A stretch of 64,000 bases of DNA from positions 74,390-138,389 of the forward strand of contig JACQHR010000032.1 of the NCBI GenBank assembly GCA_016198905.1, written 5' to 3'. A model generated the notes under the pieces. The model was given only the letters and a program-made list of their open reading frames with translations, did not search any database and had not been told where the DNA came from. Below are positions 3,524 through 27,349 of this stretch, in pieces (positions within the stretch are counted from its first letter, which is position 1; each line of letters begins with the position of its first letter). Position numbers and translations under genes: made by a program. This DNA comes from Candidatus Omnitrophota bacterium (GTDB lineage Bacteria > Omnitrophota > Gorgyraeia > Aquiviventales > Aquiviventaceae).

Positions 3524-3586
3524 CTGCCGATCAAACCGTATGCGGCGTTGACGGTGAGCGCGCTACAGGCGATAGGGAAGAACTGA
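3524..3586 (+). repeat. Orphan 63-nt copy of the GT2 3' end (duplicate of 2670-2732)
   Basis: Encodes LPIKPYAALTVSALQAIGKN* versus LPIKPYAALTVSALQTLGRN* at 2670-2732. Differences are 5 synonymous codon changes, 3 conservative replacements and a stop-to-stop change. Confidence 0.85.
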
Positions 3587-3608
3587 AATGAGAATAGTGG
3601 AGAGCCAG

Positions 3609-3872
3609 TTACTGAAGAAACCGATAGACGTCCTTGCGCGGGCCGACTTTCAAGAGGACGACCGCTCGGTCACGATCGAGGATGTCGTACAGGACGCGGT
3701 AGGCCCCGACGCGGATGCGCCAGCACATGACGCGGCCCTTCAGCTTCTTGCATCCGGGAGGACGAGGGTCATAACGCAGGTGTTCGATCGCTTCCCGCAA
3801 GGCAGGGACCACATGCGTAGGCAGGTTGTCGAGCTCGCGCTCAACGCGGCGAGGAGTGTGGACGACCCACAT
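3609..3872 (-). CDS. RelE/ParE-family type II toxin
   Basis: 87 aa. The pattern ...KKLKGRVMCWRIRVGAYRVLYDILDRDRAVVLLKVGPRKDVY is typical of RelE/ParE. The gene directly abuts the antitoxin gene. Confidence 0.8.
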   Translation of the reverse strand: MWVVHTPRRVERELDNLPTHVVPALREAIEHLRYDPRPPGCKKLKGRVMCWRIRVGAYRVLYDILDRDRAVVLLKVGPRKDVYRFLQ

Positions 3873-4145
3873 TCAGCGGCGGGAGGGCCTCAGCGCTTTG
3901 GAGCGACCGGCACGATAGTCGCGTCGCGCCTCGGCAACTTCTTGTGCGAGCTCCTCATCCGTTTCATCCAGGCGGTCTTCCAGGTCGCTCATGAGCTGCT
4001 CGTACAGTTCCATCGACAGCAGCGCGGCGACTGCGCGTCCGCTCTTTGTGACAAAACACGGCACATGTTCTTTATGCAGCGACTTCAGCACACTCGAAAA
4101 GTGGCTGCGCACATCACTCGCAGGCAGAATTTTGATCGTCATCAC
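3873..4145 (-). CDS. Phd/YefM-family antitoxin
   Basis: 90 aa. MMTIKILPASDVRSHFSSVLKSL..EHVPCFVTKSGRAVAALLSMELYEQL is a Phd/YefM N-domain. AGGAGGTGAG RBS lies upstream on the minus strand. Confidence 0.8.
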   Translation of the reverse strand: MMTIKILPASDVRSHFSSVLKSLHKEHVPCFVTKSGRAVAALLSMELYEQLMSDLEDRLDETDEELAQEVAEARRDYRAGRSKALRPSRR

Positions 4146-7953: not shown

Positions 7954-8933
7954 GCGAGCCGATCGTGAGCGTCGTCATCGCCACGCGCAACCGGGCCGCG
8001 ATGCTTAAAGAGGCCATCGCCAGCGTCGGCGCGCAGACGTATCAGGATTGGGAGCTCATCGTGGTGGATGACGGCTCGACCGATCAGACGAAGCGGGTCG
8101 CGCAGCAAGCGGCGAAGGACGATCCGCGCGTCCACTATCTTCGGCAGCCGGCCAGAGGCGGCGTGTCGAAAGCGCGCAATGCCGGCATCCACGCGGCGCG
8201 CGGGCGCTACATTGCGTTTCTCGATGACGATGACCAATTCGTTGCGGAGAAGCTCGCGACTCAAGTGGTGCACCTCGACCGTTCGCCCGAGGTGGGCTTC
8301 GTCTACGCGCAGAGCGAATGGGTGGATCGCCGCGGGACTTCGTTGGGAGTTCAGCCGACGGCGCCAGTGACTGATCTCAAGGGGCTGGTGGAGCACTGCG
8401 CGATCCCCCTGCAAACCGTCATGTGTCGTCGGGAACTGATCGAGCGGGTGGGCGGCTTCGATGAGCGGCTGTCGATCGGCGAAGACTACGACTTGTGGCT
8501 GCGGCTGGCGCGCATCACCCGGTTTGAGTTCGTCGCGCGTCCGCTGGTGCGCTACGGGGTGCATGGCGCCAATACGTGCAACGACAGCATCCGGCTCTAC
8601 GAGCAGCGGGCGATCATCCTGGCGCGCGTGCCGCTCGACCGTGCGCGGGGAATCACGTGGTGGTTCAAGCGCCGGCGCCTGGCGATCAACGCGTATCGGC
8701 TGGCGAGGCTGCACCACGAGGCGCGCGCTTTCGCGCAGGCGTCGGCGCATTTTGCCCGCGCGGTCGTCTACGACCCGATGGTCGGCCTGGCCATGGCCGA
8801 GCCGCGCCCTCGGGGGCTGGCGCGCCTGTGGGTGTCGCTGAAACCCTATCTGGCGATCGTGCTGCTCCTGATCGGGGTCAGTCCCCAAGCACGAAAAGTA
8901 GCGAGATCACCCGATTGGGGTCTGACCCCATGA
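7950..8933 (+). CDS. Glycosyltransferase family 2
   Basis: VSVVIATRNR, VVDDGSTDQT, AFLDDDD. ATGA start/stop overlap with the preceding gene. The track ORF's long N-terminal extension (from 7368) overlaps the previous GT2 out of frame. Confidence 0.9.
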   Translation: MSEPIVSVVIATRNRAAMLKEAIASVGAQTYQDWELIVVDDGSTDQTKRVAQQAAKDDPRVHYLRQPARGGVSKARNAGIHAARGRYIAFLDDDDQFVAEKLATQVVHLDRSPEVGFVYAQSEWVDRRGTSLGVQPTAPVTDLKGLVEHCAIPLQTVMCRRELIERVGGFDERLSIGEDYDLWLRLARITRFEFVARPLVRYGVHGANTCNDSIRLYEQRAIILARVPLDRARGITWWFKRRRLAINAYRLARLHHEARAFAQASAHFARAVVYDPMVGLAMAEPRPRGLARLWVSLKPYLAIVLLLIGVSPQARKVARSPDWGLTP

Positions 8934-11464
8934 GGATTGTGATTGTGGCACCAGAGGTGTTTCCGGTTCCACCGATCCGAGGCGGGGCGGTGGAGACCGT
9001 CATCGAGGAAATCTCCGCGCAGTTCCGTGACCACAAGGTAACCATTCTCGGCATTGCCGACGCGTCACTGCCGGTGCAAGAGACGAAGGAGCATCGGACA
9101 TATCGCCGTTGGAAGCGCACGGTCATTGATCGACTCTTGCTCTCGACGTGGAAGCTGCCGTTCAAACAGAGCAACTCGCCGTGGTACTACTGGCCCTACC
9201 AGCATTGGATCGCCAGGCAGGTGCAACGGCTGCGTCCCGACGTCGTGTGGGTGCACAGCCGCATCCAATTTGCGCCGGCGATTCGCCGCGCCGCCCCTCA
9301 CGCGCGGATGATCGTCAGCGTCCATCAACTGAGCACGCTGCGCGATGAGCGCGTCTGGCAGCAAGCGCGCGTCGCGTGTTGTGATGTGATCGCCGGTGTC
9401 AGCCAATTCATGATCGAGGCCATCGCTGCGCGGTATCCATGGACGCAACCCAAGACGCACGTGCTCTCAAACGGCGTTGACGTGACAGCCTATCAGCCGT
9501 GGTGGGCGCAGTCGGCCAGGCGCGAGCGGATGCGCCGCGAGCAGGGCTGGGGTGACGCGCCGGTGATCTTGTATGCCGGGCGGCTCGTCGAGCAAAAGGG
9601 CGTGCATGTGCTCGCCGATGCTTTCAAACAACTGGTAAGGGGTGAGGGGCGGGAGACAGGGGGCGCGGGATCCAACACGAAACCAATGCTGGTCATTGCC
9701 GGCGGCCACACGTACTCCGATGGGACAGAAACCGACTATATCAGGCAGTTGAAGCGCACGCTTGAGCCGCTGGGATCGCAGGTCGTCTGGCTGGGGTATC
9801 AACCGTCGAGCGCGCTGGTGAGCCTGTACGCGGCCAGCGACGTCGTCGTCGTCCCATCAATCAATCCGGAAGCGTTTTCCATGGTCACGGTTGAAGCGAT
9901 GGCCTCGGGTCTGCCGGTCGTTGCCTTCGCGCACGGCGGCCCAGCGGAGATCATTCGCCACGGCATCGATGGGTTCTTGGTGCCGGTCTCCCGCGGCGCG
10001 GAGGGTCTGGCCGAGGCGCTGCAAGCGTGCGTCAGCAACACCACCCTGCGGGAAGCCATCGGCCGCGAGGCCAGACGGACGGTAGAGGAGCGCTTTACGT
10101 GGCAGCGTGTGGCAGAGAGCTTCCTCAAATTGACTCAGGGACAAGGGACAGGGGACAGGGGGCGAGGGAATGCCCTTCCTACGCCCCGCGCCCCGCGCCC
10201 CGCGCCCCAGACACGCGCCGTCCCTATTCTTATTGCTGAGTCAGGATCAGGCTACGGAGGCAGCGCGAAATACCTCAGCGAGCTGGTGTCGCTGCTGGAT
10301 CGGCGACGCTTCCACGCGCAGGTGGTGGCGGCTGAAGAGGGGCCGTTCATTCGCAAGGTCAAAGAGCAGGGAGTGCCAGTAGCACTGAGGCCAAGTTGGA
10401 GATTCGCTTGGGGGCAGGGGGCGGGAGACGAGGGGCGGGGGAAGGGCCAGCACACAGCACTCAGCACGAACGTGAAACATGAAACGCGAAACGTGAAACG
10501 AACGTCGCATGTCCGGTTCGCGCTGGTTGCTGCTACACAGCTTTTGATCATGGTTCCAGCAATTGCCCTCTGGTTGAAGTGGCGGAGGATCCGGCTGGTG
10601 CATCTGAATAACGAGATCCTCTCGCACGTGCCGCTGGCGCTCGGAGCGAAACTCGCCGGCTGCCGCGTGGTGTGCCACCTGCACGGCTGGCGTCCGTTCA
10701 CGAGGCTGGAGCGCGCTGTGGCCGGTGTCGTTGATGAGTTCGTCTGCATTTCGGAGGCTGGCGCGCGGTACTTCGAATCGCAACTGCCGCATCGCCGGGT
10801 GGCCGCGATTCCCAACGGTATTCTGCTCAATGGTCAGTTGGACGGCCTTGACGTGAAACGAGCGCAGGTCCGTCGGCAGTTGGGGATCCAGCCCCATGAC
10901 GCGGTCATCGCCATCATCGGGCGCTTGGTGCCGTGGAAAGGCCAGGCAGTGTTCTTGAAGGCGTTGGCGGATGTCAGCCAGCGACACCCGGACGTGGTCG
11001 GCCTCATCGTGGGGCACGATGCCTCGCCAGGGCAGAGCTATCTGACACAGTTACAGTCGACTGCGCGTGAGCACGGCCTCGCTGAGCGTGGGCGCGTGCA
11101 CTTTGTCCCGTGGCTCGAGGACGTGTGGGGCATTTATGCCGCGGCGGACATCATCGTGCACGCTTCGACGCAGCCGGAGCCGTTCGGACTCGTGCTCATT
11201 GAAGCGATGGCGGCGGGCAAGCTCGTGATTGCCACGCGATCCGGTGGAGTCGTCGATATCGTCACGGATGGCCGGACAGGACTGCTGGTTGAGCCGGGCG
11301 ATCCGGATGGGCTGGCGCGCGCCATCACGCAGGTGGTGACTGATCCTTCGCGCGCCGCTGCGCTGGCTGAGGCCGGCCGGCAGCGCGCGCGAGACGTGTT
11401 CACCATGGAGCGCAACGCGCAGGCAGTCGCGCAGGTCTATCAGCGGCTGATGGTGTGCCGATGA
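8930..11464 (+). CDS. Double GT4 glycosyltransferase (two complete GT-B modules joined through element E3)
   Basis: Module 1: MRIVIVAPEVFPVPPIRGGAVE...VVPSINPEAFSMVTVEAMASGLPVVAF. Module 2: ILIAESGSGYGGSAKY...ASTQPEPFGLVLIEAMAAGKLVIATRSGG. ATGA overlap at 8930. Contains E2, E3 and E4 in frame. Confidence 0.85.
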   Translation: MRIVIVAPEVFPVPPIRGGAVETVIEEISAQFRDHKVTILGIADASLPVQETKEHRTYRRWKRTVIDRLLLSTWKLPFKQSNSPWYYWPYQHWIARQVQRLRPDVVWVHSRIQFAPAIRRAAPHARMIVSVHQLSTLRDERVWQQARVACCDVIAGVSQFMIEAIAARYPWTQPKTHVLSNGVDVTAYQPWWAQSARRERMRREQGWGDAPVILYAGRLVEQKGVHVLADAFKQLVRGEGRETGGAGSNTKPMLVIAGGHTYSDGTETDYIRQLKRTLEPLGSQVVWLGYQPSSALVSLYAASDVVVVPSINPEAFSMVTVEAMASGLPVVAFAHGGPAEIIRHGIDGFLVPVSRGAEGLAEALQACVSNTTLREAIGREARRTVEERFTWQRVAESFLKLTQGQGTGDRGRGNALPTPRAPRPAPQTRAVPILIAESGSGYGGSAKYLSELVSLLDRRRFHAQVVAAEEGPFIRKVKEQGVPVALRPSWRFAWGQGAGDEGRGKGQHTALSTNVKHETRNVKRTSHVRFALVAATQLLIMVPAIALWLKWRRIRLVHLNNEILSHVPLALGAKLAGCRVVCHLHGWRPFTRLERAVAGVVDEFVCISEAGARYFESQLPHRRVAAIPNGILLNGQLDGLDVKRAQVRRQLGIQPHDAVIAIIGRLVPWKGQAVFLKALADVSQRHPDVVGLIVGHDASPGQSYLTQLQSTAREHGLAERGRVHFVPWLEDVWGIYAAADIIVHASTQPEPFGLVLIEAMAAGKLVIATRSGGVVDIVTDGRTGLLVEPGDPDGLARAITQVVTDPSRAAALAEAGRQRARDVFTMERNAQAVAQVYQRLMVCR
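9637..9669 (+). repeat. E2: solo G-rich arm inside GT4 module 1
   Basis: AAGGGGTGAGGGGCGGGAGACAGGGGGCGCGGGA matches the left-arm consensus and is translated in frame as RGEGRETGGAG. No C-rich partner follows. Confidence 0.8.
10136..10208 (+). repeat. E3: G-arm/C-arm palindromic element fusing two GT4 cistrons
   Basis: Left CAGGGACAAGGGACAGGGGACAGGGGGCGAGGG, loop AATGCCCTTCCTA, right CGCCCCG x3 + CGCCCC. Translated as GQGTGDRGRGNALPTPRAPRPAP with no stop. Confidence 0.85.
10410..10504 (+). repeat. E4: chimeric three-block heptamer element inside GT4 module 2
   Basis: G-arm GGGGGCAGGGGGCGGGAGACGAGGGGCGGGGGAAGGG, then CAGCACA CAGCACT CAGCACG, then AACGTGA AACATGA AACGCGA AACGTGA AACGAAC (the E1-type GTGAAAC arm). 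In frame as GQGAGDEGRGKGQHTALSTNVKHETRNVKRT. Confidence 0.85.
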
Positions 11465-12997: not shown

Positions 12998-14344
12998 ATA
13001 CTTGGTTGTATCTTGAGTCAATTCCCGCGATACGATGAGGCGTTCATTCTGCGCGAGCTTGTCGCGTTGTCGCAGGACTCGCCGCGGCTCGTGATCTTCT
13101 CGCTGCGTCCGTGCCGCGATCGCGTGATCCACGAGCAGGCGAAAGCCCTGCAGCCGCAGACAGTCTACGCGCCCTTCGTGTGGTCATGGCAGGTCTGGCG
13201 CAGCCACGCGCATGTCCTTCAGCACAATCTGAGAGGATATCTTCGCGCGCTTGGATGGATCATCAGCCGGCATTGGCGGCATCCGGTGATTCTGGTGAAG
13301 ACGCTGGCATTTTTCCCAAAGACCGTGCACTTCGCGAGGCTGGCCCAACAGCGGGGCGTCACGCATGTGCATGCGTTTTGGGCGACGTACCCGGCGGCGG
13401 CGGCGATGATCATGCGTGAGCTGACCGGCATCCCATTTAGCATGTCCGGCCACGCGCATGATATTCACACGATCAATCCGACGCTGACCGAGAAGATGCA
13501 GCATGCGCGCTTTGTCGTGACCTGCACGCAGGCGAATCGTGACTATTTGTTATCGTTAGTCAATAGTCATGGGGCAAGGGGCGGGAGACAGGGGGCAGGG
13601 ACAACCAAAACTATTGTGGAAGGTTTTTCCACGCCCCCCGTCCCCCGCCCCCCGTCCCATGTTATGGTGAGCTACCACGGCGTCGATCTTTCCCGCTTCG
13701 CCGCGCGGCCGAAGGATCACGGGCCGGTGTGCCGGATCCTCGCGGTGGGCAGCCTGTTGCCGTGCAAAGGGTATGAGACGCTGATTGAGGGCTGCACGCG
13801 GCTGCGTGAGCGCGGCGCGGCGTTTCACGTGACCATCGCCGGCGGCGGGCCGCTCGAACGCGCGCTGCGCCAGCGGATCGCGAAGCATGCGCTTACGCAG
13901 CAGGTGACGATGACGGGCTTTGTCAGCCAGGAAACGGTCGCAGCGCTCTATCAGCAAGCGCACCTCGTGATCCTGCCCTTGGTGTCCAAGATCCATTGGG
14001 GCATCCCGAACGTCCTGATCGAAGCGCTGGCTACGAAGACGCCGGTCATCTGCTGCGATCTGCCGTCGATGCGCGAGCTGGTGGTGCACGGCGAAAGCGG
14101 CTGGATCATCCCTGAGAACGACCCCAACGCGTTAGCGACTTCAATCGTGACGCTCTGGAAAGACGCCGCGTTGCGGCAGCGGATCGCCGACGCAGGGTAT
14201 CAGCGCGTGGTCGAGCGGTTTTCGCTGGAGGAAACTGGACGAAAGCTACGAGAGATCTTTAGTCAGGGGCAGGGGGCGGGAGACAGGGGGCAGGTGCAGA
14301 CCGATTTTCCCGCGCCCCGCGCCCCGCGCCCCAAAGTTCCTTAA
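12962..14344 (+). CDS. Glycosyltransferase family 4
   Basis: GT-B C-domain: ...ILPLVSKIHWGIPNVLIEALATKTPVICCDLPSMRELV. Start ATG lies in the E5 loop (alternative GTG 12941). Contains E6 in frame, and E7 forms its C-terminal tail. Confidence 0.8.
   Translation: MPTIPPPPAPRPILGCILSQFPRYDEAFILRELVALSQDSPRLVIFSLRPCRDRVIHEQAKALQPQTVYAPFVWSWQVWRSHAHVLQHNLRGYLRALGWIISRHWRHPVILVKTLAFFPKTVHFARLAQQRGVTHVHAFWATYPAAAAMIMRELTGIPFSMSGHAHDIHTINPTLTEKMQHARFVVTCTQANRDYLLSLVNSHGARGGRQGAGTTKTIVEGFSTPPVPRPPSHVMVSYHGVDLSRFAARPKDHGPVCRILAVGSLLPCKGYETLIEGCTRLRERGAAFHVTIAGGGPLERALRQRIAKHALTQQVTMTGFVSQETVAALYQQAHLVILPLVSKIHWGIPNVLIEALATKTPVICCDLPSMRELVVHGESGWIIPENDPNALATSIVTLWKDAALRQRIADAGYQRVVERFSLEETGRKLREIFSQGQGAGDRGQVQTDFPAPRAPRPKVP
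13568..13661 (+). repeat. E6: palindromic element in frame inside GT4
   Basis: Left CATGGGGCAAGGGGCGGGAGACAGGGGGCAGGG, 30-nt loop, right ACGCCCCCCGTCCCCCGCCCCCCGTCCCATG. Translated as HGARGGRQGAGTTKTIVEGFSTPPVPRPPSH. Confidence 0.85.
14264..14332 (+). repeat. E7: palindromic element forming the C-terminal tail of GT4
   Basis: Left CAGGGGCAGGGGGCGGGAGACAGGGGGCAGG, loop TGCAGACCGATTTTCC, right CGCGCCCCGCGCCCCGCGCCCC. Translated as GQGAGDRGQVQTDFPAPRAPRP, followed by the TAATG junction at 14342-14346. Confidence 0.85.
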
Positions 14345-15204
14345 TGGCCATTCTGCGCACAGTCCTCAGCGATATCACCTATCATGCGAGGCGATTGACA
14401 CCTGGCGATGGAGAAGGATTGCGCATCCTGATGTACCATCGCGTCACCGATGCGCATCCCGGGAATCGGCTGTGCGTGCCGGTGGCGCGGTTTGCGGATC
14501 AGATGCGGTGGCTGGCGGAGCAGGGGTACCGCACAATCTCATTCGCTGAGGCGGTGGAGTTAGTGAGGGGGCAGGGGGCAGGGGGCGGGAGACGGGGGAA
14601 TAGCCGACAAGCAGAATCTGCGGCATTCCCTCGCCCCGCGCCCCGCGCCCCGCGCCCCAAACTGATTGTCCTGACATTTGATGACGGCTTCGAGGATAAT
14701 TTTCTCTACGCCTATCGCGCGCTGGCGCAGTACGGCTTCACCGGCTGCTTCTTCGTGCCAAGTGCCTTTATCGCGTCCGGACAAACCGGGCATGAGGCGG
14801 TCGATCAACCGATGAGCTGGGCGCAATTGAGTGAGCTCGCACGGGAAGGCCACGAAGTAGGAGCGCATTCGATCAGCCACGCGAAGCTCACACACATTGA
14901 TCCGGTGCAGATGCGCGAGGAAGTGCGAGGATCGAAAGAAGCGATCGAGCAAGGACTGCAGCAGCCCGTGAGATTCTTCTGTTACCCGTCGGGTGACTAT
15001 AATGCGGCCGTGAAACAGGCGGTGCGCGACAGCGGCTACGACGGGGCGTGCACCGTGGAGCCGGGCGCGAACCGTTCCGGGGCTGATCCCTTTGCGTTGA
15101 CACGCACGGAGATCAGCGCGTTTGATTCGCTGTGGGATTTTGAGAAGAAGATCGCGGGCGCGTTTGATTGGATGCATCGCGTCGTCCAATGGACGAAACG
15201 ATGA
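14344..15204 (+). CDS. Polysaccharide deacetylase (CE4/NodB-type), paralog 1, with in-frame E8 insertion
   Basis: LTFDDGFEDN, GAHSISH and YPSGDYN motifs. TAATG 1-nt overlap with the upstream gene. Confidence 0.85.
   Translation: MAILRTVLSDITYHARRLTPGDGEGLRILMYHRVTDAHPGNRLCVPVARFADQMRWLAEQGYRTISFAEAVELVRGQGAGGGRRGNSRQAESAAFPRPAPRAPRPKLIVLTFDDGFEDNFLYAYRALAQYGFTGCFFVPSAFIASGQTGHEAVDQPMSWAQLSELAREGHEVGAHSISHAKLTHIDPVQMREEVRGSKEAIEQGLQQPVRFFCYPSGDYNAAVKQAVRDSGYDGACTVEPGANRSGADPFALTRTEISAFDSLWDFEKKIAGAFDWMHRVVQWTKR
14565..14658 (+). repeat. E8: palindromic element in frame inside the deacetylase
   Basis: Left GAGGGGGCAGGGGGCAGGGGGCGGGAGACGGGGG, loop AATAGCCGACAAGCAGAATCTGCGGCATT, right CCCTCGCCCCGCGCCCCGCGCCCCGCGCCCC. 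Translated as GQGAGGGRRGNSRQAESAAFPRPAPRAPRP. Confidence 0.9.
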
Positions 15205-16466
15205 TCAGACATCAGACCTCAGACATCAGACCACAGTCGGACTCAAGACCCAAGACCCAAGACCCAACAGGTGCATTTTCAGCCCCGAGTCTTGAGTCCC
15301 GAGTCTTGAGTCCCGAGTCTCGGGTCCCAGTGAAGGTCATATTCATCATTTGGTCGCTTGGATTAGGCGGCGCAGAACAGGTTGTGATCCGGTTAGCAGC
15401 CGGGCTTGATCGTCGCCGATTCGCGCCGATCATTTGCTGCATGAACGAGCCCGGGCCGTTTGCCACGCAAGCGATCAGCCGCGGCATCGAGGTGATTGCG
15501 CTGCATAAGCGCGGCGCGATCGATCTGGGCATGCTGATCAGGCTCACGCGCGTGATGCGGCAGCGTCGGCCCGGCATCGTGCACACGCATCTGTGGGGCG
15601 CCAGCTTCTGGGGGCGTCTCGCGGCGCGTCTGGCGCGCGTCCCGGTAGTCATCGTCCATGAGCACGGCATGCAGCCCTATCGCGGGGCCTTCCATTTTTT
15701 CTGCGATCGATGGTTAGCGCGGGTCACGTCGCGCATCCTGTTTGCCTCGCAGCACGTCCTGCAGATCTACCGGGCAAAGACGGCCGTCGCGGAATCCAAG
15801 TGCATGGTGATTCCGAATGGTGTCGCGGTGTTACGGCTGCCGGATCGAATCGCGGCTAGGCGCGCGCGCGGATGGTCGCCGGACGATCAAGTGATCCTCA
15901 GCGTCGGGCGGCTCTCGCCGGAAAAAGGCTATGAGGATTTGCTGAAGGCCTTCGCGCTCATCGCTTCCCGCGCGCCGCACGCGCGGCTGGTGCTCGTGGG
16001 AGATGGCGCGCAACGCGCGGCGCTTCAGACGCTGCAGGCGCAGTCAGGGCTCAATGGCCGCGTGACGTTTGCGGGCCGGCAAGAGGATGTCACGGGATGG
16101 CTGGCCGCGGCGGATCTCTACGTGCAGCCCTCGCATCGAGAAGGGCTGCCGCTGGCGGTGCTGGAGGCGATGGCCGCCGGCGTGCCGGTGGTGGCCACCG
16201 ACGTCGGCGATCTGCGCTACGTCATCACCGAGGGACGCACCGGCTACCTCGTGCCGGCCCGGCAGCCGGACACGCTGGCTGCGCGATTGGTCGACGTCCT
16301 GGAACATCCCGAGCAACAGCCGCGCATCGCCGAGGCCGCGCGAGCGCTCGTGCGCACGCGCTTCTCCGACGAACAGATGATCCGCGCCATTGAGCGCGTG
16401 TATGAGGACGAGCTGTCGTGTTGGGGCAAGGGGCAGGAGACGGGGGGCGGGGGAGGGAACCGCTGA
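15201..16466 (+). CDS. Glycosyltransferase family 4
   Basis: VKVIFIIWSLGLGGAEQVVIRLAAGL... and QPSHREGLPLAVLEAMAAGVPVVATDVGD. ATGA overlap at 15201. The first ~43 codons are E9 heptamer repeats, so the true start could be later (e.g. GTG 15331). Confidence 0.8.
   Translation: MIRHQTSDIRPQSDSRPKTQDPTGAFSAPSLESRVLSPESRVPVKVIFIIWSLGLGGAEQVVIRLAAGLDRRRFAPIICCMNEPGPFATQAISRGIEVIALHKRGAIDLGMLIRLTRVMRQRRPGIVHTHLWGASFWGRLAARLARVPVVIVHEHGMQPYRGAFHFFCDRWLARVTSRILFASQHVLQIYRAKTAVAESKCMVIPNGVAVLRLPDRIAARRARGWSPDDQVILSVGRLSPEKGYEDLLKAFALIASRAPHARLVLVGDGAQRAALQTLQAQSGLNGRVTFAGRQEDVTGWLAAADLYVQPSHREGLPLAVLEAMAAGVPVVATDVGDLRYVITEGRTGYLVPARQPDTLAARLVDVLEHPEQQPRIAEAARALVRTRFSDEQMIRAIERVYEDELSCWGKGQETGGGGGNR
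15205..15328 (+). repeat. E9: variant heptamer element (different unit sequences)
   Basis: TCAGACA TCAGACC TCAGACA TCAGACC; then ACTCAAG ACCCAAG ACCCAAG ACCC; loop GGTGCATTTTCAG; then GAGTCTT GAGTCCC GAGTCTT GAGTCCC GAGTCTC GGGTCCC. GGACTCAAGAC is complementary to GTCTTGAGTCC. Confidence 0.8.
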
Positions 16467-16540: not shown

Positions 16541-18025
16541 ATGAGGAGTGACGCGGTCTTGCCGGCAGCGATGGTGAGGCGCCTGCTGCCCGAGGTGGAT
16601 GAGCGGGCGTGGATGTTCGTGCTCGCGATCGGCGCCTTCGCCGTGTTGGGGCTCAAAGAGATGCCGTTATCGGCACCCCTGGTCTTGGGTCTCTTCGCTG
16701 CCGGTGTGGTCGGGTTGATTGCGGCCGGCTGGCTGGGACCCGAAGCACCGCTGTACGCGCTCATCGCGTACTTGCCCTTCAGCGGGCTGCTGGCCGGTGG
16801 CGCGTCCATCCCGTTTCTCAACCTGACGAATTTGCTTATCCTACTCATCGTGGTCAGCCACATTTGGCGGCAGCGTCGGAATGAGCTGCAGGTCTTGACG
16901 TCTGCGCCGATGAATGCGGTCATCGCGCTTTTCGCCGCGCTGGCGGTTCTGTCGTGGATGCGCGCCGGATGGATGTATGGCGGCTGGTACGCGTCGACGC
17001 ATGCCGTGGCTCTCTTGCGTTGGCTGCGCCCGATGGCGTTCTACTTCGTGGCGCTGTGGGCCGTGCGGGATGCGCGCGCACTAAAGACCGTGCTTGCGCT
17101 CATCGCGGTGGCGGTGACGGTCGTCGCGCTGATGGCGCTGTGGGAGTATCTCGATCGCGCCGGCAGCACCATCGAGCGCTCGCGCGTGCAGGGAATCGCC
17201 GGCGAAGCCAACCGCATGGGGGCGTTCTTCGTGACGTACATGTTCCTGTTCCTTGGCTATTTCTTCGTGACACCGCTGCGTCGCTACGGGTGGCTGATGC
17301 TCGTGCCGTTTCTCTTGTGCGTGCGCGGCATCATGGTGACCTTCTCGCGCGGGGCGCATGTGGCGTTCGCTGCGGGGGTGCTCGTCGCTTGTTGGATGCG
17401 CAGCAAGTGGCTCTTCGTGGTTGCGGCCGCCGCCGCGGCATTCATCATCACGCATCCGGCCCTGCTGCCGGGAGGATTTCGCACCCGCATCGAGCAGACC
17501 ATTCGTCCTGGTCAGCGACTCGACCTGGACGCCGGCACCTCGCAGGAGCTCTCGCGGCAATTGGAGCCCAGCGTCGGGCGACGGGTTGAAGCATGGAACG
17601 GCGGCTTGGCGATGGTGCGCGCGCATCCCTGGGTTGGCGTCGGGTTCGGAGGATTCCGGCGGTTCATTCCCCACTACACGCAGGGCCGAGTGAGCTCCAT
17701 GGCGGCGCACAACACGTACCTGTGGCTGGCGTCGGAGATGGGCATCCCCACGCTGCTGGTGTTTCTGCTGTTTCTCGACCTGCTGGCGTACCACACGGTG
17801 TGGCTGTATCGGCACAGCCAGGATGTCTGGCTGCGGGCTCTTGGCCTTGGCGTGTTGGCCGGCGCCGCGGCGCTGTCTGTGGCCAACGGTTTCAGCGAGT
17901 GCCTCGATTCCTCCGAGGAGGTCGTGGGTTATTTCTGGATCCTCTGCGCGCTCGTCATGAGAGGCGTCCTGCTTGAAAAACAACAGGCTGGGGCAAGGGG
18001 CGTGAGACAGGGGGCGGGGGAATAG
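16541..18025 (+). CDS. O-antigen ligase / Wzy-like polytopic membrane protein (paralog 2)
   Basis: Collinear with 11461..12957 (e.g. GIMVTFSRGAHVAFAAG, AHNTYLWLASEMGIP). The tail GARGVRQGAGE is encoded by the E11 left arm. Confidence 0.8.
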   Translation: MRSDAVLPAAMVRRLLPEVDERAWMFVLAIGAFAVLGLKEMPLSAPLVLGLFAAGVVGLIAAGWLGPEAPLYALIAYLPFSGLLAGGASIPFLNLTNLLILLIVVSHIWRQRRNELQVLTSAPMNAVIALFAALAVLSWMRAGWMYGGWYASTHAVALLRWLRPMAFYFVALWAVRDARALKTVLALIAVAVTVVALMALWEYLDRAGSTIERSRVQGIAGEANRMGAFFVTYMFLFLGYFFVTPLRRYGWLMLVPFLLCVRGIMVTFSRGAHVAFAAGVLVACWMRSKWLFVVAAAAAAFIITHPALLPGGFRTRIEQTIRPGQRLDLDAGTSQELSRQLEPSVGRRVEAWNGGLAMVRAHPWVGVGFGGFRRFIPHYTQGRVSSMAAHNTYLWLASEMGIPTLLVFLLFLDLLAYHTVWLYRHSQDVWLRALGLGVLAGAAALSVANGFSECLDSSEEVVGYFWILCALVMRGVLLEKQQAGARGVRQGAGE

Positions 18026-18437
18026 CAATGCCTATGACGTCTGCAGCGATCACAACCTTCAAAGACCTTCGCGTCTGGCAGGAAGGCATCCAGTTGGTCA
18101 AGGAGATCTATGCCCTCTGCGTCAAATTGCCGAAGGAAGAACTCTACGGCTTAGCGAGTCAGATGAAGCGCGCGGCGGTGTCGGTTCCATCCAACGTAGC
18201 AGAAGGCCATGCTCGAAAACACCGCGCCGAGTACAGACAGTACGTGTATATTGCGATCGGCTCGCTTGCGGAACTCGAGACGCACGTGCTCATTGCTAAG
18301 GAGTTGAACTTGTCTAATGGTGATGAGCTGACCCCGGTCCTTACACGCATTGACCGTTTGCGAGGGATGTTGCTGACGCTCGGGAGACGACTCGGATGAC
18401 GCCGTCCCCTCGCCCCTCGCCCCTCGCCCCTCGCCCC
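17989..18437 (+). repeat. E11: G-arm/C-arm palindromic cassette carrying a second four-helix-bundle gene
   Basis: Left TGGGGCAAGGGGCGTGAGACAGGGGGCGGGGG (17989-18020). Right (CCCCTCG)x4 + CCCCA (18406-18437). About 25 of 32 positions are complementary by hand alignment. Confidence 0.9.
18028..18399 (+). CDS. Four-helix-bundle protein (23S rRNA intervening-sequence protein family), second, divergent copy
   Basis: FKDLRVWQEGIQLVKEIY...QMKRAAVSVPSNVAEGHARKH..EYRQYVYIAIGSLAELETH. Starts 2 nt after the ligase TAG and has an ATGA overlap with the next GT4. Confidence 0.85.
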   Translation: MPMTSAAITTFKDLRVWQEGIQLVKEIYALCVKLPKEELYGLASQMKRAAVSVPSNVAEGHARKHRAEYRQYVYIAIGSLAELETHVLIAKELNLSNGDELTPVLTRIDRLRGMLLTLGRRLG

Positions 18438-23700: not shown

Positions 23701-26383
23701 CGACTATGGCGATACGCGGACGTGGTATCGCAAGGACGCTTACGACAAATCCTACGACGACTGGGGCTGGCACCCGGAGGGCCGCTGGGGCTGGCACAAC
23801 TGCGAGGCGGTGGGCAGCCACGGGGGCGCGCTGATGAGCTTCCTGCGGACGCAGGAGCTCAAGTACTTCCGCTTCGGCGAGGCGAAGGCGCGCCACGTGA
23901 TGGACGTCGACACCGTCCACTACGATACGATTGCCAACGACTCGCGGCTTTCGCGCAAGCTCTCGGATGAGTTCTCGAAGGTCGGCTCCATGCACCGCCA
24001 CAACGCCTATCACTGGGGCGGGCGCAACGAGGAGGCCACGCACACGAACGTCGCCGGGCTGCTCCTCTACTACTATCTCACCGGCTATGAGCGCGCGCTG
24101 GATGTCGCGAAGGAAGCCGGCGGCTTCATGCTGTTTGATCCGGTGACCTACACCAAGCATCCGGACATCGCCCCCTCGCGCGCGATCGGCAACGTGCTCT
24201 GGAACGATACACTCCTCTTTGAAGCCACCGGCGAGCGGCGCTACCGCACCGCGGCCGAGCGGTGGGTGCGCGTGCTGCTCAAAGGCCAGCAGAAAGACGG
24301 CACGTGGCTGGAGACGTACAATCCGCGCAACGGCACCTGGTACGGCGATGTCAAGACGAACTACCTCTGCTACCACGTGCTGCCGGCGCTCATCGCCTAC
24401 CACCGCCTGACCGGCAACCCGGCCGTCGCCCAGGCGATTGTGATGGGCACCAATGCGATGATCGCCAAGGAGCCGTACCTGCAGTTCTTCGACGCGCTGG
24501 CCTACAGCTTTCTCATCACGGGCAAGGGCGAGTACGTTGATGAAGGGCTGCGGCGAGCGATGGCGCTGTATCGGTCGCAGCGGCGCGATGAAGATCCGGC
24601 GTTCAACGGCACCGTTTTTGAGAAGGCAACCTATGACCGTGTGGGGCCGATCCTGTATTCCGTGCCGTTTGCCATCGGCGCGATGGACGCGACGGATTTT
24701 CCAACGCTGGAGCAGTCCTTCCAACCCCCATCACGACCAACGAGCACGCCTCCTCGCTCGACACAGACCAGTCAGCAGGCTTCCCCCACAGCCACCGCGC
24801 AGACCGGCGCATCCTATGAAGTGCTTGTCGTCCCGTCGATGGAAAAAGTGTTTCCTCAGGATCAGCGGCCGGCGAGCGCGCACAGCAATCCGGCGGTGCT
24901 GGCACTCGCCCGCAACGAATATGAGTCCGTCCAGCTCGTGCTACGAGCCAGCGCCCCGCTGGAACAGGTGACGGTTGAGACGCACGATCTGACGCGCACC
25001 GACGGCACGGGTGTCATTCCTCGTGACGCGCTGACGTGGTTTCCGGTCGGGTTTGTGAAGACGAGGCAGCCGGACTATGACGTCTCGCGCGTGGGCTGGT
25101 GGCCTGATCCGTTGCTCGATCCAACACCGTTTGCCGTCCAGGCAGGATGGTGGCAGCCGATGTGGCTGACGGTGTACGCAGCCCCCGGCACGCCTGCAGG
25201 AGAGTACACGGGCACCGTGACGATCCGGCCAGGCAATGCGCCGCCCAAAGACGTCGAGGTGAAGGTGCGGGTGTGGGATTTCGACTTGCCGGCGACCCCG
25301 ACGCTCAAAAGCGCGTTTGACGTCTATCCGGCGAGAATCGACAGCGCCTACCGCCAATTCTTTCCGCAGTGGTGGCCGCGCGTGCAGGGACGGACCGCGC
25401 AGCTGACGCAGTGGATCGATGACGACCTCCTTCGCCATCGTCTGGCACCGATGCTCAACGCGGATCTCCAGCGGCCCGAGACGATGAGCGAGCTGCGGCG
25501 CCTGCGCGCGAAGGGGCTGAGCGCATTCGCCATCGGTCGCTACAGCGGCAGCTTCGACAACAACTGGCCCACGGACGGCACGCAGCTCGAGCAGCTCCAA
25601 CCCGTGTACCGGGCGTATGGCTACCAGCTGCGCGACGCCAAGCTGATCGATCGGCACTACATCTATACGTACGATGAACCGGCGCCGGGGCTGCCGCATG
25701 TCGCCGCAGTCGCGCACATGGTGCACGACGCGGATCCGCAACTGAAGAACCTGGTAACACTCGGCGCGCCGATGGATGTGACAGCGCTCGCCGGGTGGTT
25801 GAAGGACATCGATATCGTCTGCCTGCGCAACGTGATCGCGCAGTCGGAATCGATCCGCGCCCTGCAGCAGATGGGCAAAGAAGTCTGGCTCTACGTCTCC
25901 GGGCCGAAGCCGCCGTATCCGACGCTGGTGATCGATTATCCGTCGCTGGCCTATCGCATCCTGCCGTGGATGTGCTGGAAGTACGGCATCCGCGGACTGC
26001 TCTATTGGAGCGTCAATTACTGGACGACGAACCCGTACGAGCAGCCGATGAATACGCCGTGGCAACAAAACGGCAACGGCTCGTTGTACTATCCAGGACC
26101 CGAGGGCCCGCGCCCGTCGCTGCGGCTGGAAGTGCTGCGCGATGGGATGGAGGACTACGAGTATCTGTCCCGGTTGCGCGAGTTGATCCAATCAGCGAAG
26201 GCCGGCGGGCGCATCGATGCCGCGACGTTGGCCCGGGCGGAACAGTTGGTGAACGTGAATGACGGGTTCGTGGAGTCGCTGCGCGTCTACTCGAATGATC
26301 CCGCGGTGCTGTTGGCGCAGCGTCAGGCGATTGCAGAGATGATCGAGAAGCTCCAAAACATACTGAAGGGGCAAGGGGCATGA
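20714..26383 (+). CDS. Giant membrane-anchored multidomain protein: metallophosphoesterase + polysaccharide lyase/hydrolase-like region + DUF4091-like domain
   Basis: Two N-terminal hydrophobic helices. Phosphoesterase motifs: QITDLHIT, ITGDLIND, VPGNTDN, LLAHSPD, GHTHGGQ. A long beta/alpha-toroid-like middle region (tentatively PcRGLX/YetA-like). P/S/T/Q linker (PPSRPTSTPPRSTQTSQQASPTATAQ). C-terminal WWPDPL...LLYWSVNYW (DUF4091/GH123-like). ATGA overlap at the start. Stop lies inside the E12 left arm. Confidence 0.7.
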   Translation: MNVIKLLKLAFVAAHAGVIGLVILRAWSLSLAESRAVAGRFLRVALTRLLLVVMVELSPYVYARFVEPNMVVVTRLRVAQDQLAHALGGRRVVQITDLHITTIGARERRLIQRVNRQRPDWIVITGDLINDAAGWRAALEVIGRLKATQGIWVVPGNTDNAILSPDSFAQGLAGVNAKVLRNSRIRMAETDAWLVGVDDPVERRDSLDEALKGMDRSAPPPMILLAHSPDILDAAVAARIPLVLVGHTHGGQLGIPWLRRLSSYADRGPYVGGGRYHVEQTTMYVNRGIGWKEIPHRFLAPPEVLVIEFRPQGKRAAPTAESPPVRAEVWLSDFERDGEEAVLWNVFNAFATHSREHASHGQACAKVTLKAGFSSSYALEDDFLTRDPARRDWTRDEALAFDVYNAQSVPEPLIVRIRDDGKGLYEETITLPSRVPHTVTLSLADLSRSLDLSRVSGLALLRKDSTHDVVLYLDAVRLLPRRAGAPASGVSTGAATEEPSALEDAAVTPHMLGRWHFEHDLVSRWRAADPATGRSVVRVPLTVVGPQMPLSVGQPIAGGIPFAMGQLAANAAIRVHDMNGAVWPAQTRPLAVWEDGSVKWLLVTAQVPMTARSRQLWLEYGEPVAADPAPQPRVRVDDTPQAVTVTTGPLRFTVSRRHFTLFDSTFVDRNRDGVFAEAERLASAGDLVLKRGDTEFRSSRDTVSYMLQVEEAGPVRATLKASGWFRDAAGRGFCQFTVRLQAFAGLPQVRVYHTFIYTGYPANLYNPNYEGIKLPANETIQDISLELPVTLGATTQLITADEQGLVTAPLTNPTSISQLAHDAYQIRQQGAASPLRAGAHHEGWLLMQDSNAGVMVGVRDAWQQYPKAFEVDAASRRLIVRLWPSSAGDLNLETGADAYGPDAVARGSAFGLAKTHELWVGFLGAVIDGSTARALAGLWQEPWLLSAHPAWVQDTDALGTVGPAEMDRFPEQEAMLEDVFGWAKRQPQRFDWYGMLDYGDTRTWYRKDAYDKSYDDWGWHPEGRWGWHNCEAVGSHGGALMSFLRTQELKYFRFGEAKARHVMDVDTVHYDTIANDSRLSRKLSDEFSKVGSMHRHNAYHWGGRNEEATHTNVAGLLLYYYLTGYERALDVAKEAGGFMLFDPVTYTKHPDIAPSRAIGNVLWNDTLLFEATGERRYRTAAERWVRVLLKGQQKDGTWLETYNPRNGTWYGDVKTNYLCYHVLPALIAYHRLTGNPAVAQAIVMGTNAMIAKEPYLQFFDALAYSFLITGKGEYVDEGLRRAMALYRSQRRDEDPAFNGTVFEKATYDRVGPILYSVPFAIGAMDATDFPTLEQSFQPPSRPTSTPPRSTQTSQQASPTATAQTGASYEVLVVPSMEKVFPQDQRPASAHSNPAVLALARNEYESVQLVLRASAPLEQVTVETHDLTRTDGTGVIPRDALTWFPVGFVKTRQPDYDVSRVGWWPDPLLDPTPFAVQAGWWQPMWLTVYAAPGTPAGEYTGTVTIRPGNAPPKDVEVKVRVWDFDLPATPTLKSAFDVYPARIDSAYRQFFPQWWPRVQGRTAQLTQWIDDDLLRHRLAPMLNADLQRPETMSELRRLRAKGLSAFAIGRYSGSFDNNWPTDGTQLEQLQPVYRAYGYQLRDAKLIDRHYIYTYDEPAPGLPHVAAVAHMVHDADPQLKNLVTLGAPMDVTALAGWLKDIDIVCLRNVIAQSESIRALQQMGKEVWLYVSGPKPPYPTLVIDYPSLAYRILPWMCWKYGIRGLLYWSVNYWTTNPYEQPMNTPWQQNGNGSLYYPGPEGPRPSLRLEVLRDGMEDYEYLSRLRELIQSAKAGGRIDAATLARAEQLVNVNDGFVESLRVYSNDPAVLLAQRQAIAEMIEKLQNILKGQGA

Positions 26384-26456
26384 GACGCGGGGCAGGAAAA
26401 ACCAAATTTGGTATTGAGGATTTTCCCACGCCCCGTGCCCCCGTCTCCCGCCCCTT
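26366..26456 (+). repeat. E12: palindromic element at the giant-protein / deacetylase junction
   Basis: Left AAGGGGCAAGGGGCATGAGACGCGGGGCAGG. The loop has a GGAAAA...TTTTCC clamp and an internal CCAAATTTGG palindrome. Right CACGCCCCGTGCCCCCGTCTCCCGCCCCTT. Confidence 0.85.
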
Positions 26457-26476
26457 AGTCTAGAGGAGTCTAATCG

Positions 26477-27265
26477 ATGCGCATTGTAGCGCTAACCTTT
26501 CACGATATTGTTCCTAACGGCAACGACGCCGCGATCAAGAGCGATGAGTTCTACCGCATCACCACGAGTGAATTCGAGAAGCTCCTCTCACAGTTGCGCA
26601 AGCTCGGCTATCAAACGGTCAGCTCCCGCACGTTTCGCGCCTGGCAGCAAGGCTCAGGCACGCTGCCCGAGCGCACCGTCGTCCTCACGTTCGATGACGG
26701 CCACGCGAATCATTTCGAGCTCGTCGCGCCGTTGCTGGTGCGATATCGATTCACCGGCACGTTCTTCGTCACGAGCGGATTCATCGGCACACCCGGCTAT
26801 ATGAATTGGGAGCAGCTGCGCAAGCTCGTGTTCCTCGGCATGGAGATCGGCTCGCATGGCGCCACCCATCGGCCGCTGACGCAACTAGCTCGCGCGGCAG
26901 TGGTCGACGAGCTTGCGTCATCGAAGACGCTCTTGGAGCAGCGGCTGGGCATTCCGGTTCAGGCGATGGCAGCACCCGGCGGGTTCTGGAATCACACCAT
27001 AGCCGATGCGTCCAAAGAGGCGGGCTACGAGGCGGTGTGGGTCTCGACGATCGGCACGAACGGCAAGGAGACGAGCCCGCTGGCGTTGCGCCGCGTCGTC
27101 GTGCGGCAGCCGTTTTCCGTCGAGCGGATCGTGGCGATGGTCGAGGGCTGGCAACCGGCCTTCTGGTGGGCGGCGAATCAACAATTGCTCATTCGGCTGC
27201 TCAAGCGCGTCCTCGGCGTCTATTGGTACGAACAACTCAAGCGCCGCCTCGTTCCCAATGCCTAG
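26477..27265 (+). CDS. Polysaccharide deacetylase (CE4/NodB-type), paralog 2, without element insertion
   Basis: LTFDDGHANH, GSHGATH and APGGFWN motifs. Confidence 0.85.
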   Translation: MRIVALTFHDIVPNGNDAAIKSDEFYRITTSEFEKLLSQLRKLGYQTVSSRTFRAWQQGSGTLPERTVVLTFDDGHANHFELVAPLLVRYRFTGTFFVTSGFIGTPGYMNWEQLRKLVFLGMEIGSHGATHRPLTQLARAAVVDELASSKTLLEQRLGIPVQAMAAPGGFWNHTIADASKEAGYEAVWVSTIGTNGKETSPLALRRVVVRQPFSVERIVAMVEGWQPAFWWAANQQLLIRLLKRVLGVYWYEQLKRRLVPNA

Positions 27266-27341
27266 AGGGAGCGTGGGGCGTGGGGCGTGGGGCGTGGGAA
27301 AACCGCTTTTCCCTCGCCCCCCATCTCCTGTCCCTTGCCCC
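27266..27341 (+). repeat. E13: palindromic element at the deacetylase / GT2 junction
   Basis: Left AGGGA + (GCGTGGG)x4. Inner clamp GGGAAAA-CCGC-TTTTCCC (27296-27313). Right CTCGCCCCCCATCTCCTGTCCCTTGCCCC, which is close to the reverse complement of the E10-type G-arm. Confidence 0.85.
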
Positions 27342-27349
27342 AATCTGTG

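Follow-up and report, generated by a model that had tools for sequence, protein, structure and literature searches.

A Repeat Hairpin at the Deacetylase–GT4 Junction

The stretch of Omnitrophota DNA analyzed here—64 kb in full, from a metagenome-assembled genome, and called the window throughout—carries a glycan-biosynthesis cluster at 0.3–28.5 kb that encodes GT2 and GT4 transferases, two Wzy-like proteins, two deacetylases, and a giant GH123-type protein. Within this cluster, a polysaccharide deacetylase gene (PF01522 by Pfam; 14344–15204, plus strand; its ortholog alignment ends in VVQWTKR and the stop) meets a GT4 glycosyltransferase gene in an ATGA stop/start overlap at 15201–15204 on the same strand. 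Here ATG 15201, the probable GT4 start, overlaps the deacetylase stop TGA 15202–15204. Directly behind the stop lies E9, a 124-base hairpin of tandem 7-base repeats inside a short, variable leader of GT4. The GT4 open reading frame (ORF) covers 15201–16466 on the plus strand and encodes 421 aa with the leader, with Pfam GT4 domains from residue 56 onward, or 378 aa from an alternative in-frame start, GTG 15330–15332 (plus strand), which stands at the Met position of leaderless homologs.

E9 spans 15205–15328 and consists of four plus-strand blocks: (TCAGACM)4, (GACYCAA)4, a 19-nt loop, and (GAGTCYY)6. The first block (15205–15232) is an unpaired heptamer array, (TCAGACA TCAGACC)×2, and thus a perfect 14-mer present twice. 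It is separated from the 5′ arm by a degenerate unit, ACAGTCG (15233–15239), that pairs locally in the predicted fold. The 5′ arm, GACTCAA (GACCCAA)×3, forms the second block at 15240–15267; the loop, CAGGTGCATTTTCAGCCCC, follows at 15268–15286 and is unpaired in the folds of both strands. The 3′ arm, (GAGTCTT GAGTCCC)×2 GAGTCTC GGGTCCC at 15287–15328, repeats, at period 14, the reverse complement of GGGACTCAAGACTC, with which the second block begins. Tandem Repeats Finder and a repeat search give array copy numbers of 4, 4, and 6.4, and the longest perfect tracts measure 24–28 nt, that is, 2 × 14 or 3.4 × 7. An earlier note on this DNA, made from the letters alone, had described E9 as four blocks in the same place; sequence reading, Tandem Repeats Finder, and the repeat search all recover them, the (AAGACCC)3 of that note being the array at 15240–15267 read in a shifted register. 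No E9 unit occurs outside 15205–15328 in the window.

The partial complementarity that had been proposed for the second and fourth blocks is borne out by an 11/11 core (15239–15249 versus 15289–15299) and by 84% complementarity over 25 nt between 15239–15263 and 15289–15313. The plus-strand RNA of E9 folds at −46.4 kcal/mol (z −4.3) and the minus-strand RNA at −68.5 kcal/mol (z −7.4); none of 200 shuffles folds as well. Mismatches between the arms are C·A on the plus strand and G·U on the minus strand. The favored folding strand is minus in the window and in the orthologous loci L001 and L003, and plus in L002. Across the window, perfect period-7 arrays number 7 versus 0 in shuffles, and period 7 is the sole enriched tandem period: no perfect arrays were found at periods 4–6 or 8–12.

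Several conventional identities for the hairpin were set aside. An intrinsic terminator or a 3′ stabilizer resembling repetitive extragenic palindromes is out, as E9 has no GC-rich stem with a U-run behind it; no terminator-like site lies in 15100–15450, and the hits of the scanned region lie elsewhere. Neither strand of E9 holds a promoter. An antisense small RNA from the better-folding minus strand is likewise out, because orthologs differ in the favored strand and E9 has no promoter-like site. An Rfam 15 scan of 9–21 kb returned only look-alikes of miRNA precursors (23–25 bits against thresholds of 65–98), and no rRNA match was found in the same interval. Enrichment of GANTC, the CcrM/HinfI-type site, does not account for the GAGTC units (223 observed versus 225 expected).

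An Open Frame Through the Leader

From ATG 15201, 43 codons run without a stop to VKVIFIIWSLGLGG, in agreement with the earlier note, which had placed E9 directly behind ATGA and had reckoned with about 43 added residues. The predicted leader peptide includes the segment SDIRPQSDSRPK, and homologs of the GT4 ORF cover residues ~44–421 only. We compared stop triplets in the three frames of 11 junction elements upstream of GT4 cores; locus L031, without a clear repeat element, was left out. The GT4 frame contains 0 of 22 stop triplets, the other two frames holding all 22 (P = 1.3 × 10−4). After removal of the last 21 nt, which are certainly coding, the count is 0 of 14 (P = 0.0034). Within E9 itself, the TGA triplets at 15293 and 15307, which arise from the 14-mer CTTGAGT..., are both out of frame, and the third 14-mer of the 3′ arm reads CGG at 15321–15323, where a perfect repeat would give an in-frame TGA.

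Comparison with orthologs points the same way. In loci L171 and L003, no further start codon follows the upstream ATG before the conserved core begins, and in L171 the ATGA overlap supplies the sole start available. The window has ATA where most orthologs carry the Met of M[FY]VIWSL. A P-x-[RK]-V motif just upstream of that Met position is conserved in leader-bearing orthologs. Heptamer arrays also sit in the linkers of fused deacetylase–GT4 ORFs, where they must be translated, and sibling elements in the deacetylase and in the neighboring glycosyltransferase are in-frame insertions at loops that vary among orthologs. On these grounds, the stop-free frame, the orthologs lacking any other start, and the fused linkers, E9 is probably translated from ATG 15201 as an N-terminal leader, as the earlier note had proposed. 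The converse possibility raised there, an untranslated spacer with no structure, does not describe the locus: E9 is structured and the GT4 frame is kept stop-free. The in-frame GTG which that note placed at 15331 is the one at 15330–15332. The paralogous GT4 at 18396, cited there as a parallel, does show ATGA followed by (CCCCTCG)4.6 at 18406–18437, ahead of IRVMFVIWSLGLGG.

The database annotation begins elsewhere. The NCBI call (P0001) gives 360 aa with a start at 15384 (MIRLAAG), 18 codons inside the conserved N-terminus. A start within the invariant IWSLGLGGAEQ motif is certainly wrong, and the repeat hairpin probably misled the gene caller at this GT4.

Orthologous Junctions and Their Seeds

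Syntenic loci were gathered via the GT4 protein, and the genomes nearest to the window are groundwater Omnitrophota. Blastn homology to the orthologs ends at 15204 and resumes at ~15336–15348, and E9 fills this nonhomologous gap exactly; the flanking alignment anchors are ACGATGA-TCAGRC and TCCAGYGARGGT. The RRACGATGA junction is common to L169, L171, L172, L173, and L002, and the overlap is kept in six loci.

Between these anchors, the orthologs display a range of states. Three of the closest relatives, L169 (the nearest ortholog), L171, and L172 (65–71% identical), have “empty” sites: ACGATGA is kept, the leader is 6–12 codons long, and there is no hairpin. In L169, the 10-codon leader reads GGACGAAACGATGA-ATCAGGC-AGCAGCTCCAGCGAGAGTG-ATGTTC, so that a single ATCAGGC stands after ATGA at the position of the first E9 block, followed by ...-CAGCTCCAGCGAGAGTG-ATGTTC. 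L171 has a 12-codon leader with a single CCCAAGAC, within CCTCCCAAGACGG, and L172 a 6-codon leader. In L170, an array, (CAGTCTC)4, aligns with the E9 3′ arm and has a right flank in common with it, TCCCAGYGAAGGT; by this alignment, the two arrays are homologous. Repeat-armed hairpins of unrelated units occupy the same junction in L001 (GGGGACA//CGTCCCC), L002 (GAGTTCGC//GCGAACTC, period 8), and L003 (AGAAGCT//CCACCCT), all at 57–67% identity, and L011 reproduces the E9 layout, its hairpin with period-7 arms being preceded by an unpaired block of heptamers. From one orthologous junction to the next, the arrays differ in both length and sequence. In eight more distant Omnitrophota loci (L009, L010, L012, L016, L017, L023, L036, and L039), deacetylase and GT4 form a single fused bifunctional ORF in which the junction is a linker; plain heptamer arrays lie in this linker in L010, L012, L016, and L036. 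In the window’s lineage, the two proteins are split, with the ATGA overlap between them.

The terminal units of E9 thus occur as single words at the same positions of short leaders, which argues for local slippage rather than foreign insertion. Judged by these matches, E9 would have been born by local heptamer amplification plus an inverted copy. The earlier note had read the recurrence of different elements at one relative site as junction targeting rather than sequence targeting. Such targeting is not needed, because the empty-site orthologs carry single terminal units at the same positions; repeats recur there because of local seeding combined with the indel tolerance of protein termini and linkers (PMC3315296).

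PF05635 Cassettes and Environmental Arrays

Two window elements hold a PF05635 gene in their loop (“23S rRNA intervening sequence protein,” an Avd-like four-helix bundle). One gene, at 1312–1758, lies between (CGTTTCA)4 and (TGAAACG)4 in element 1272–1777; the other, at 18028–18399, lies between a G-rich arm and the (CCCCTCG)4.6 array in element 17997–18437. Each cassette fills precisely the space between two genes of an operon. Among the contigs listed by the metagenome scan below, unrelated ones (L053, L058, L131, L143, and L152) likewise carry PF05635 genes flanked by heptamer arrays complementary to one another, and the bracketing units vary: CGTTTCA//TGAAACG, GAGTCCT//AGGACTC, GGGACTC//GAGTCCC, and CCGAGTT//AACTCGG. 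In a relative, L005, a PF05635 gene (3540–4000) occupies the very junction of E9. The cassette is built like an rRNA intervening sequence, with the S23p ORF in the loop of a stem that the complementary ends form, but it stands in mRNA. In the literature searched, we found no description of repeat-armed PF05635 cassettes in operons; only papers on the Coxiella intervening sequence and on diversity-generating retroelements surfaced.

GAGTCYY is a common environmental unit of simple sequence repeats (SSRs). A metagenome scan for (GAGTCYY)3.7 returned at least 120 contigs with GC contents of 34–73%. Among the matches listed, (GAGTCCC/GAGTCCT/GAGTCTT)n arrays of 3–17 units occur in soil, sediment, and water metagenomes (L049–L168), and 4 of 123 contigs have a complementary partner array. 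GAGTC-type arrays often adjoin other heptamer arrays (GAGTGCT, CCCAATC, GGACAGA, and others).

Sibling Elements in the Glycan Cluster

The repeat-armed elements of the window, ~14 in number, are confined to the 28-kb glycan cluster; the unrelated genes of the next 35 kb contain none. The earlier note had assigned E9 the architecture of its siblings with unrelated units, and this description holds: the other window elements have G-rich/C-rich (G/C) heptamer arms (GGGGCAG.../CCCGCGC...).

These siblings take several positions relative to genes. At 8576–11464, a 962-aa ORF joins two complete GT4 modules in frame via a G/C heptamer hairpin (10136–10212); it also contains a G-rich arm at 9646 and, at 10400–10500, a composite array without a complementary partner, in which a G-rich arm is followed by (CAGCACA)3 and (AACGTGA)4.6. 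Repeats also gather in the loop that precedes the deacetylase TFDDG motif, a second hotspot: in the window it contains a 97-nt G/C hairpin (14566–14662, +24 aa), L001 (2–64) and L173 (2–64) have (GCAGAAG)3, and L002 (5430–5470) has GQGH-LPPRP only, a possible proto-element. All three orthologs of the neighboring glycosyltransferase have repeat hairpins, of unrelated units, at one shared internal loop and in the C-terminal tail (window, 13571–13658 and 14266–14332; L002, 4416–4489 and 5120–5185; L003, 3120–3197). Period 8 prevails throughout L002, and the period is apparently lineage-specific. Two further G/C-type hairpins flank the second deacetylase gene (26477–27265): one at 26366–26460, behind a 1913-aa GH123-type ORF, and one at 27266–27345, at a deacetylase–GT2 junction with (GCGTGGG)4. 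The E9 loop sequence CAGGTGCATTTTC (15268–15283) resembles the loop CAGGTGCAGACCGATTTTC (14293–14312) of the G/C element at 14266–14332, 900 nt upstream; the arms of the two elements are unrelated.

A Probable Home-Grown Element in a Tolerant Leader

The explanation we favor, and consider slightly more likely than not, is that E9 is a home-grown, imperfect heptamer-SSR palindrome in a hypervariable, tolerant, translated GT4 leader. The ancestral junction would have consisted of the deacetylase, ATGA, a leader of 6–12 codons, and the GT4 core. We infer that 7-nt words of this leader (ATCAGRC, CCCAAGA, and CAGTCCC) were amplified in tandem by replication slippage and that an inverted copy of one amplified block, made probably by template switching, gave the hairpin; after this inverted duplication, each arm would have been amplified separately. 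E9 would persist since the segment tolerates insertions, with only in-frame, stop-free versions retained. In expression, ribosomes would end the deacetylase at TGA 15202–15204, restart at the overlapping ATG 15201 by termination–reinitiation, and read through the hairpin, adding ~43 disordered residues rich in Ser, Pro, Arg, and Gln to GT4. The hairpin starts 14 nt after the ATG and should hinder independent 30S loading, which would make GT4 synthesis dependent on upstream translation. Such enforced coupling would mirror the 1:1 stoichiometry of the fused deacetylase–GT4 proteins. Neither 7 nor 14 is divisible by 3, and the gain or loss of a unit would turn GT4 off.

Several observations weigh against this explanation. 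GTG 15330 coincides with the Met of leaderless homologs (MRIAYVIWSL; M-[RK]-[IV]-x-[YF]-V-IWSL), and initiation may take place there, alone or in addition; NCBI, too, annotates GT4 without the leader. The seed matches are short (7–8 nt), and L169 may represent an array that has contracted, not the ancestral form. Each of the four nearest relatives with a leader has a hairpin at the junction, in unrelated sequences, which hints at selection for structure itself. Copying between sites, moreover, appears to occur in this genome: the 12-mer GGGGCGGGAGAC has 11 matches in the window versus 0.6 expected, and near-identical sibling arms stand at at least seven sites. This pattern suggests copying more than separate growth at each site, and such copying could have supplied the inverted arm of E9. 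The likeness between the E9 loop and that of the upstream element also points to it and may be a trace of copying between elements.

Heptanucleotide SSRs provide a close precedent for E9. Heptamers are described as the commonest long SSRs in many bacteria, with slippage proposed as their cause (Mrazek 2007, as cited in PMC4692102 and PMC4679880), and examples are cyanobacterial short tandemly repeated repetitive (STRR) sequences and Xanthomonas GGGAATC arrays; in Xanthomonas, some arrays stand as convergent pairs between co-oriented ORFs and form inverted repeats (Rehm et al. 2015, PMC4692102). The resemblance to E9 is extensive: tandem 7-nt units, usually in 3–6 copies and close to the stop of the upstream gene; paired arrays between co-oriented ORFs whose complementarity allows a stem-loop; and positions conserved among relatives while length and sequence are highly variable (PMC4692102). 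SSRs also concentrate at indel-tolerant protein termini (Lin & Kussell, PMC3315296). Two differences stand out. A single unit family dominates each STRR or Xanthomonas genome, whereas E9-type units differ by site and by ortholog, with period 8 in L002. The STRR and Xanthomonas arrays are intergenic and under-represented in coding sequence, whereas E9 and its siblings are in frame and stop-free in leaders, linkers, loops, and tails; E9 itself lies between co-oriented genes, directly behind the upstream stop, yet the frame through it stays open and is probably read by ribosomes.

Other Explanations

An adaptive role as a contingency locus is unlikely but has the most to recommend it: a slipped-strand change of a 7- or 14-nt unit would turn GT4 on or off, and arrays in other cluster genes would act likewise, producing combinatorial surface-glycan variation. 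Classical SSR contingency loci are the CTCTT repeats of Neisseria opa and the tetramers of Haemophilus lic2A and lgtC in lipooligosaccharide glycosyltransferases. E9 shares with them a unit not divisible by three, just behind the start of a surface-glycan glycosyltransferase if ATG 15201 is used, and truncation of the protein by unit gain or loss. In silico, +7, −7, and −14 nt lead to TGA at codons 26–33, and −21 nt restores the frame. The confinement of all ~14 window elements to the glycan cluster, the different array at every orthologous junction, and the status of N-terminal SSR excess as a recognized phase-variation signature (PMC3315296) are all consistent with switching. Against it, the perfect tracts (2 to 3.4 copies) are far below typical phase-variable tracts and much shorter than those of the classical loci, from which E9 also differs in its 7/14-nt units and in the complementary second array that forms its hairpin; that partner array would have no role in a switch. 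No length variants were found: the metagenome matches listed include no second copy or strain variant of the E9 locus, and the protein cluster has one member. Restart at GTG 15330, 21–35 nt past the frameshift stops, could furthermore bypass the switch.

A more speculative idea, and in our estimate a distinctly unlikely one, is that E9-like heptamer hairpins are the ORF-less state of undescribed “messenger-RNA intervening sequences” in whose loops PF05635 cassettes settle. The model would be the intervening sequences in the 23S rRNA of Coxiella, Leptospira, and Salmonella, which occur with or without an S23p/PF05635 ORF (PMC4990558). Like E9, these have a stem of terminal complementary sequences and a short loop, with ORF-plus and ORF-less versions coexisting; the ORF-bearing siblings in the window match their layout, with a PF05635 ORF in the loop. 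The cassette at the E9 site in L005 would fit PF05635 cassettes settling in the loops of operon-junction hairpins, as intervening sequences do in 23S rRNA. E9 differs in its location, an mRNA operon junction rather than helix 25/45, in stems built of tandem heptamer arrays, and in having no ORF. Excision by RNase III, as in 23S rRNA, would be incompatible with in-frame translation of E9.

It is quite improbable that E9 is an untranslated intercistronic RNA hairpin with GT4 made from GTG 15330, whether as an RNase III processing site, as a barrier to 3′-exonucleases, or as a stem that brings stop 15204 to restart 15330 across 125 nt. The geometry would suit this, as the element spans exactly stop+1 to GTG−2 and the GTG matches the Met of leaderless homologs; so would the hairpins of unrelated sequence in all four nearest leader-bearing relatives and the layout that ORF-bearing siblings share with RNase III-excised 23S rRNA intervening sequences (PMC4990558). 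A spacer, however, has no need of a stop-free GT4 frame through E9 and 10 other junction elements. The favored strand differs among orthologs, and a hairpin is absent altogether from L169, L171, and L172, the relatives closest to the window. By sequence reading, no Shine–Dalgarno-like purine run precedes GTG 15330. Identical elements lie within coding sequences, where cleavage would be destructive, and E9 has neither a terminator-like tail nor an Rfam family.

Arrival as a mobile or copied element is very improbable. E9 would then be an ORF-less relic, or an empty landing site, of a PF05635 stem-loop cassette family, brought in by insertion or gene conversion like a miniature inverted-repeat transposable element or a Rickettsia palindromic element. 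In its favor, each of the two PF05635 genes in the window fits exactly into the gap between neighboring operon genes, with complementary heptamer arrays on either side, the bracketing recurs in the five unrelated contigs, L005 carries such a gene at the junction of E9, and the G/C-type siblings are a dispersed family. In-frame palindromic insertions are, moreover, known from Rickettsia (PMC10969869): like E9, those elements are palindromes of ~100–150 nt in frame in genes, adding a peptide at permissive surface positions. They differ in being dispersed, with conserved sequence and peptide, whereas E9 is a singleton of tandem heptamers that match its own flanks. Of the marks of a mobile insertion, E9 shows in-frame, stop-free presence; dispersed copies of it were not found in the 64-kb window, nor were element-free empty sites coupled with a target-site duplication. 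The E9 units are found nowhere else in the window, and those at its ends match the flanks of orthologs with empty sites, a signature of local duplication; there is no target-site duplication, transposase, or gene remnant in the 19-nt loop.

Implications

Heptanucleotide SSRs, including the convergent pairs of Xanthomonas (PMC4692102), and in-frame palindromes in Rickettsia (PMC10969869) were already known. What the present locus adds is a combination: units specific to each site, kept in frame in the leaders, linkers, loops, and tails of glycan-cluster proteins, with a local origin that can be traced. The link between heptamer arms and PF05635 genes is also new. The origin and function of bacterial heptamer repeats are unexplained (PMC4692102, PMC4679880), and the junction offers a natural series of unusual clarity, from the empty site through single units and arrays to a hairpin and a hairpin that encloses a gene. 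It shows the local birth of a heptamer element inside a probably translated segment. For annotation, the locus carries a warning, as the NCBI start of this GT4 removes the invariant IWSLGLGGAEQ motif.

For Omnitrophota, a phylum known here from metagenome assemblies only, heptamer repeats become readable as protein leaders and linkers. Provided that the arrays slip at useful rates, the entire glycan cluster would act as a device for combinatorial variation of the surface. The PF05635 link, should it hold, would give access to the function of a large orphan protein family, and messenger-RNA intervening sequences, should they prove real, would tie together three puzzles: bacterial heptamer repeats, PF05635 genes that stand alone, and where rRNA intervening sequences came from.

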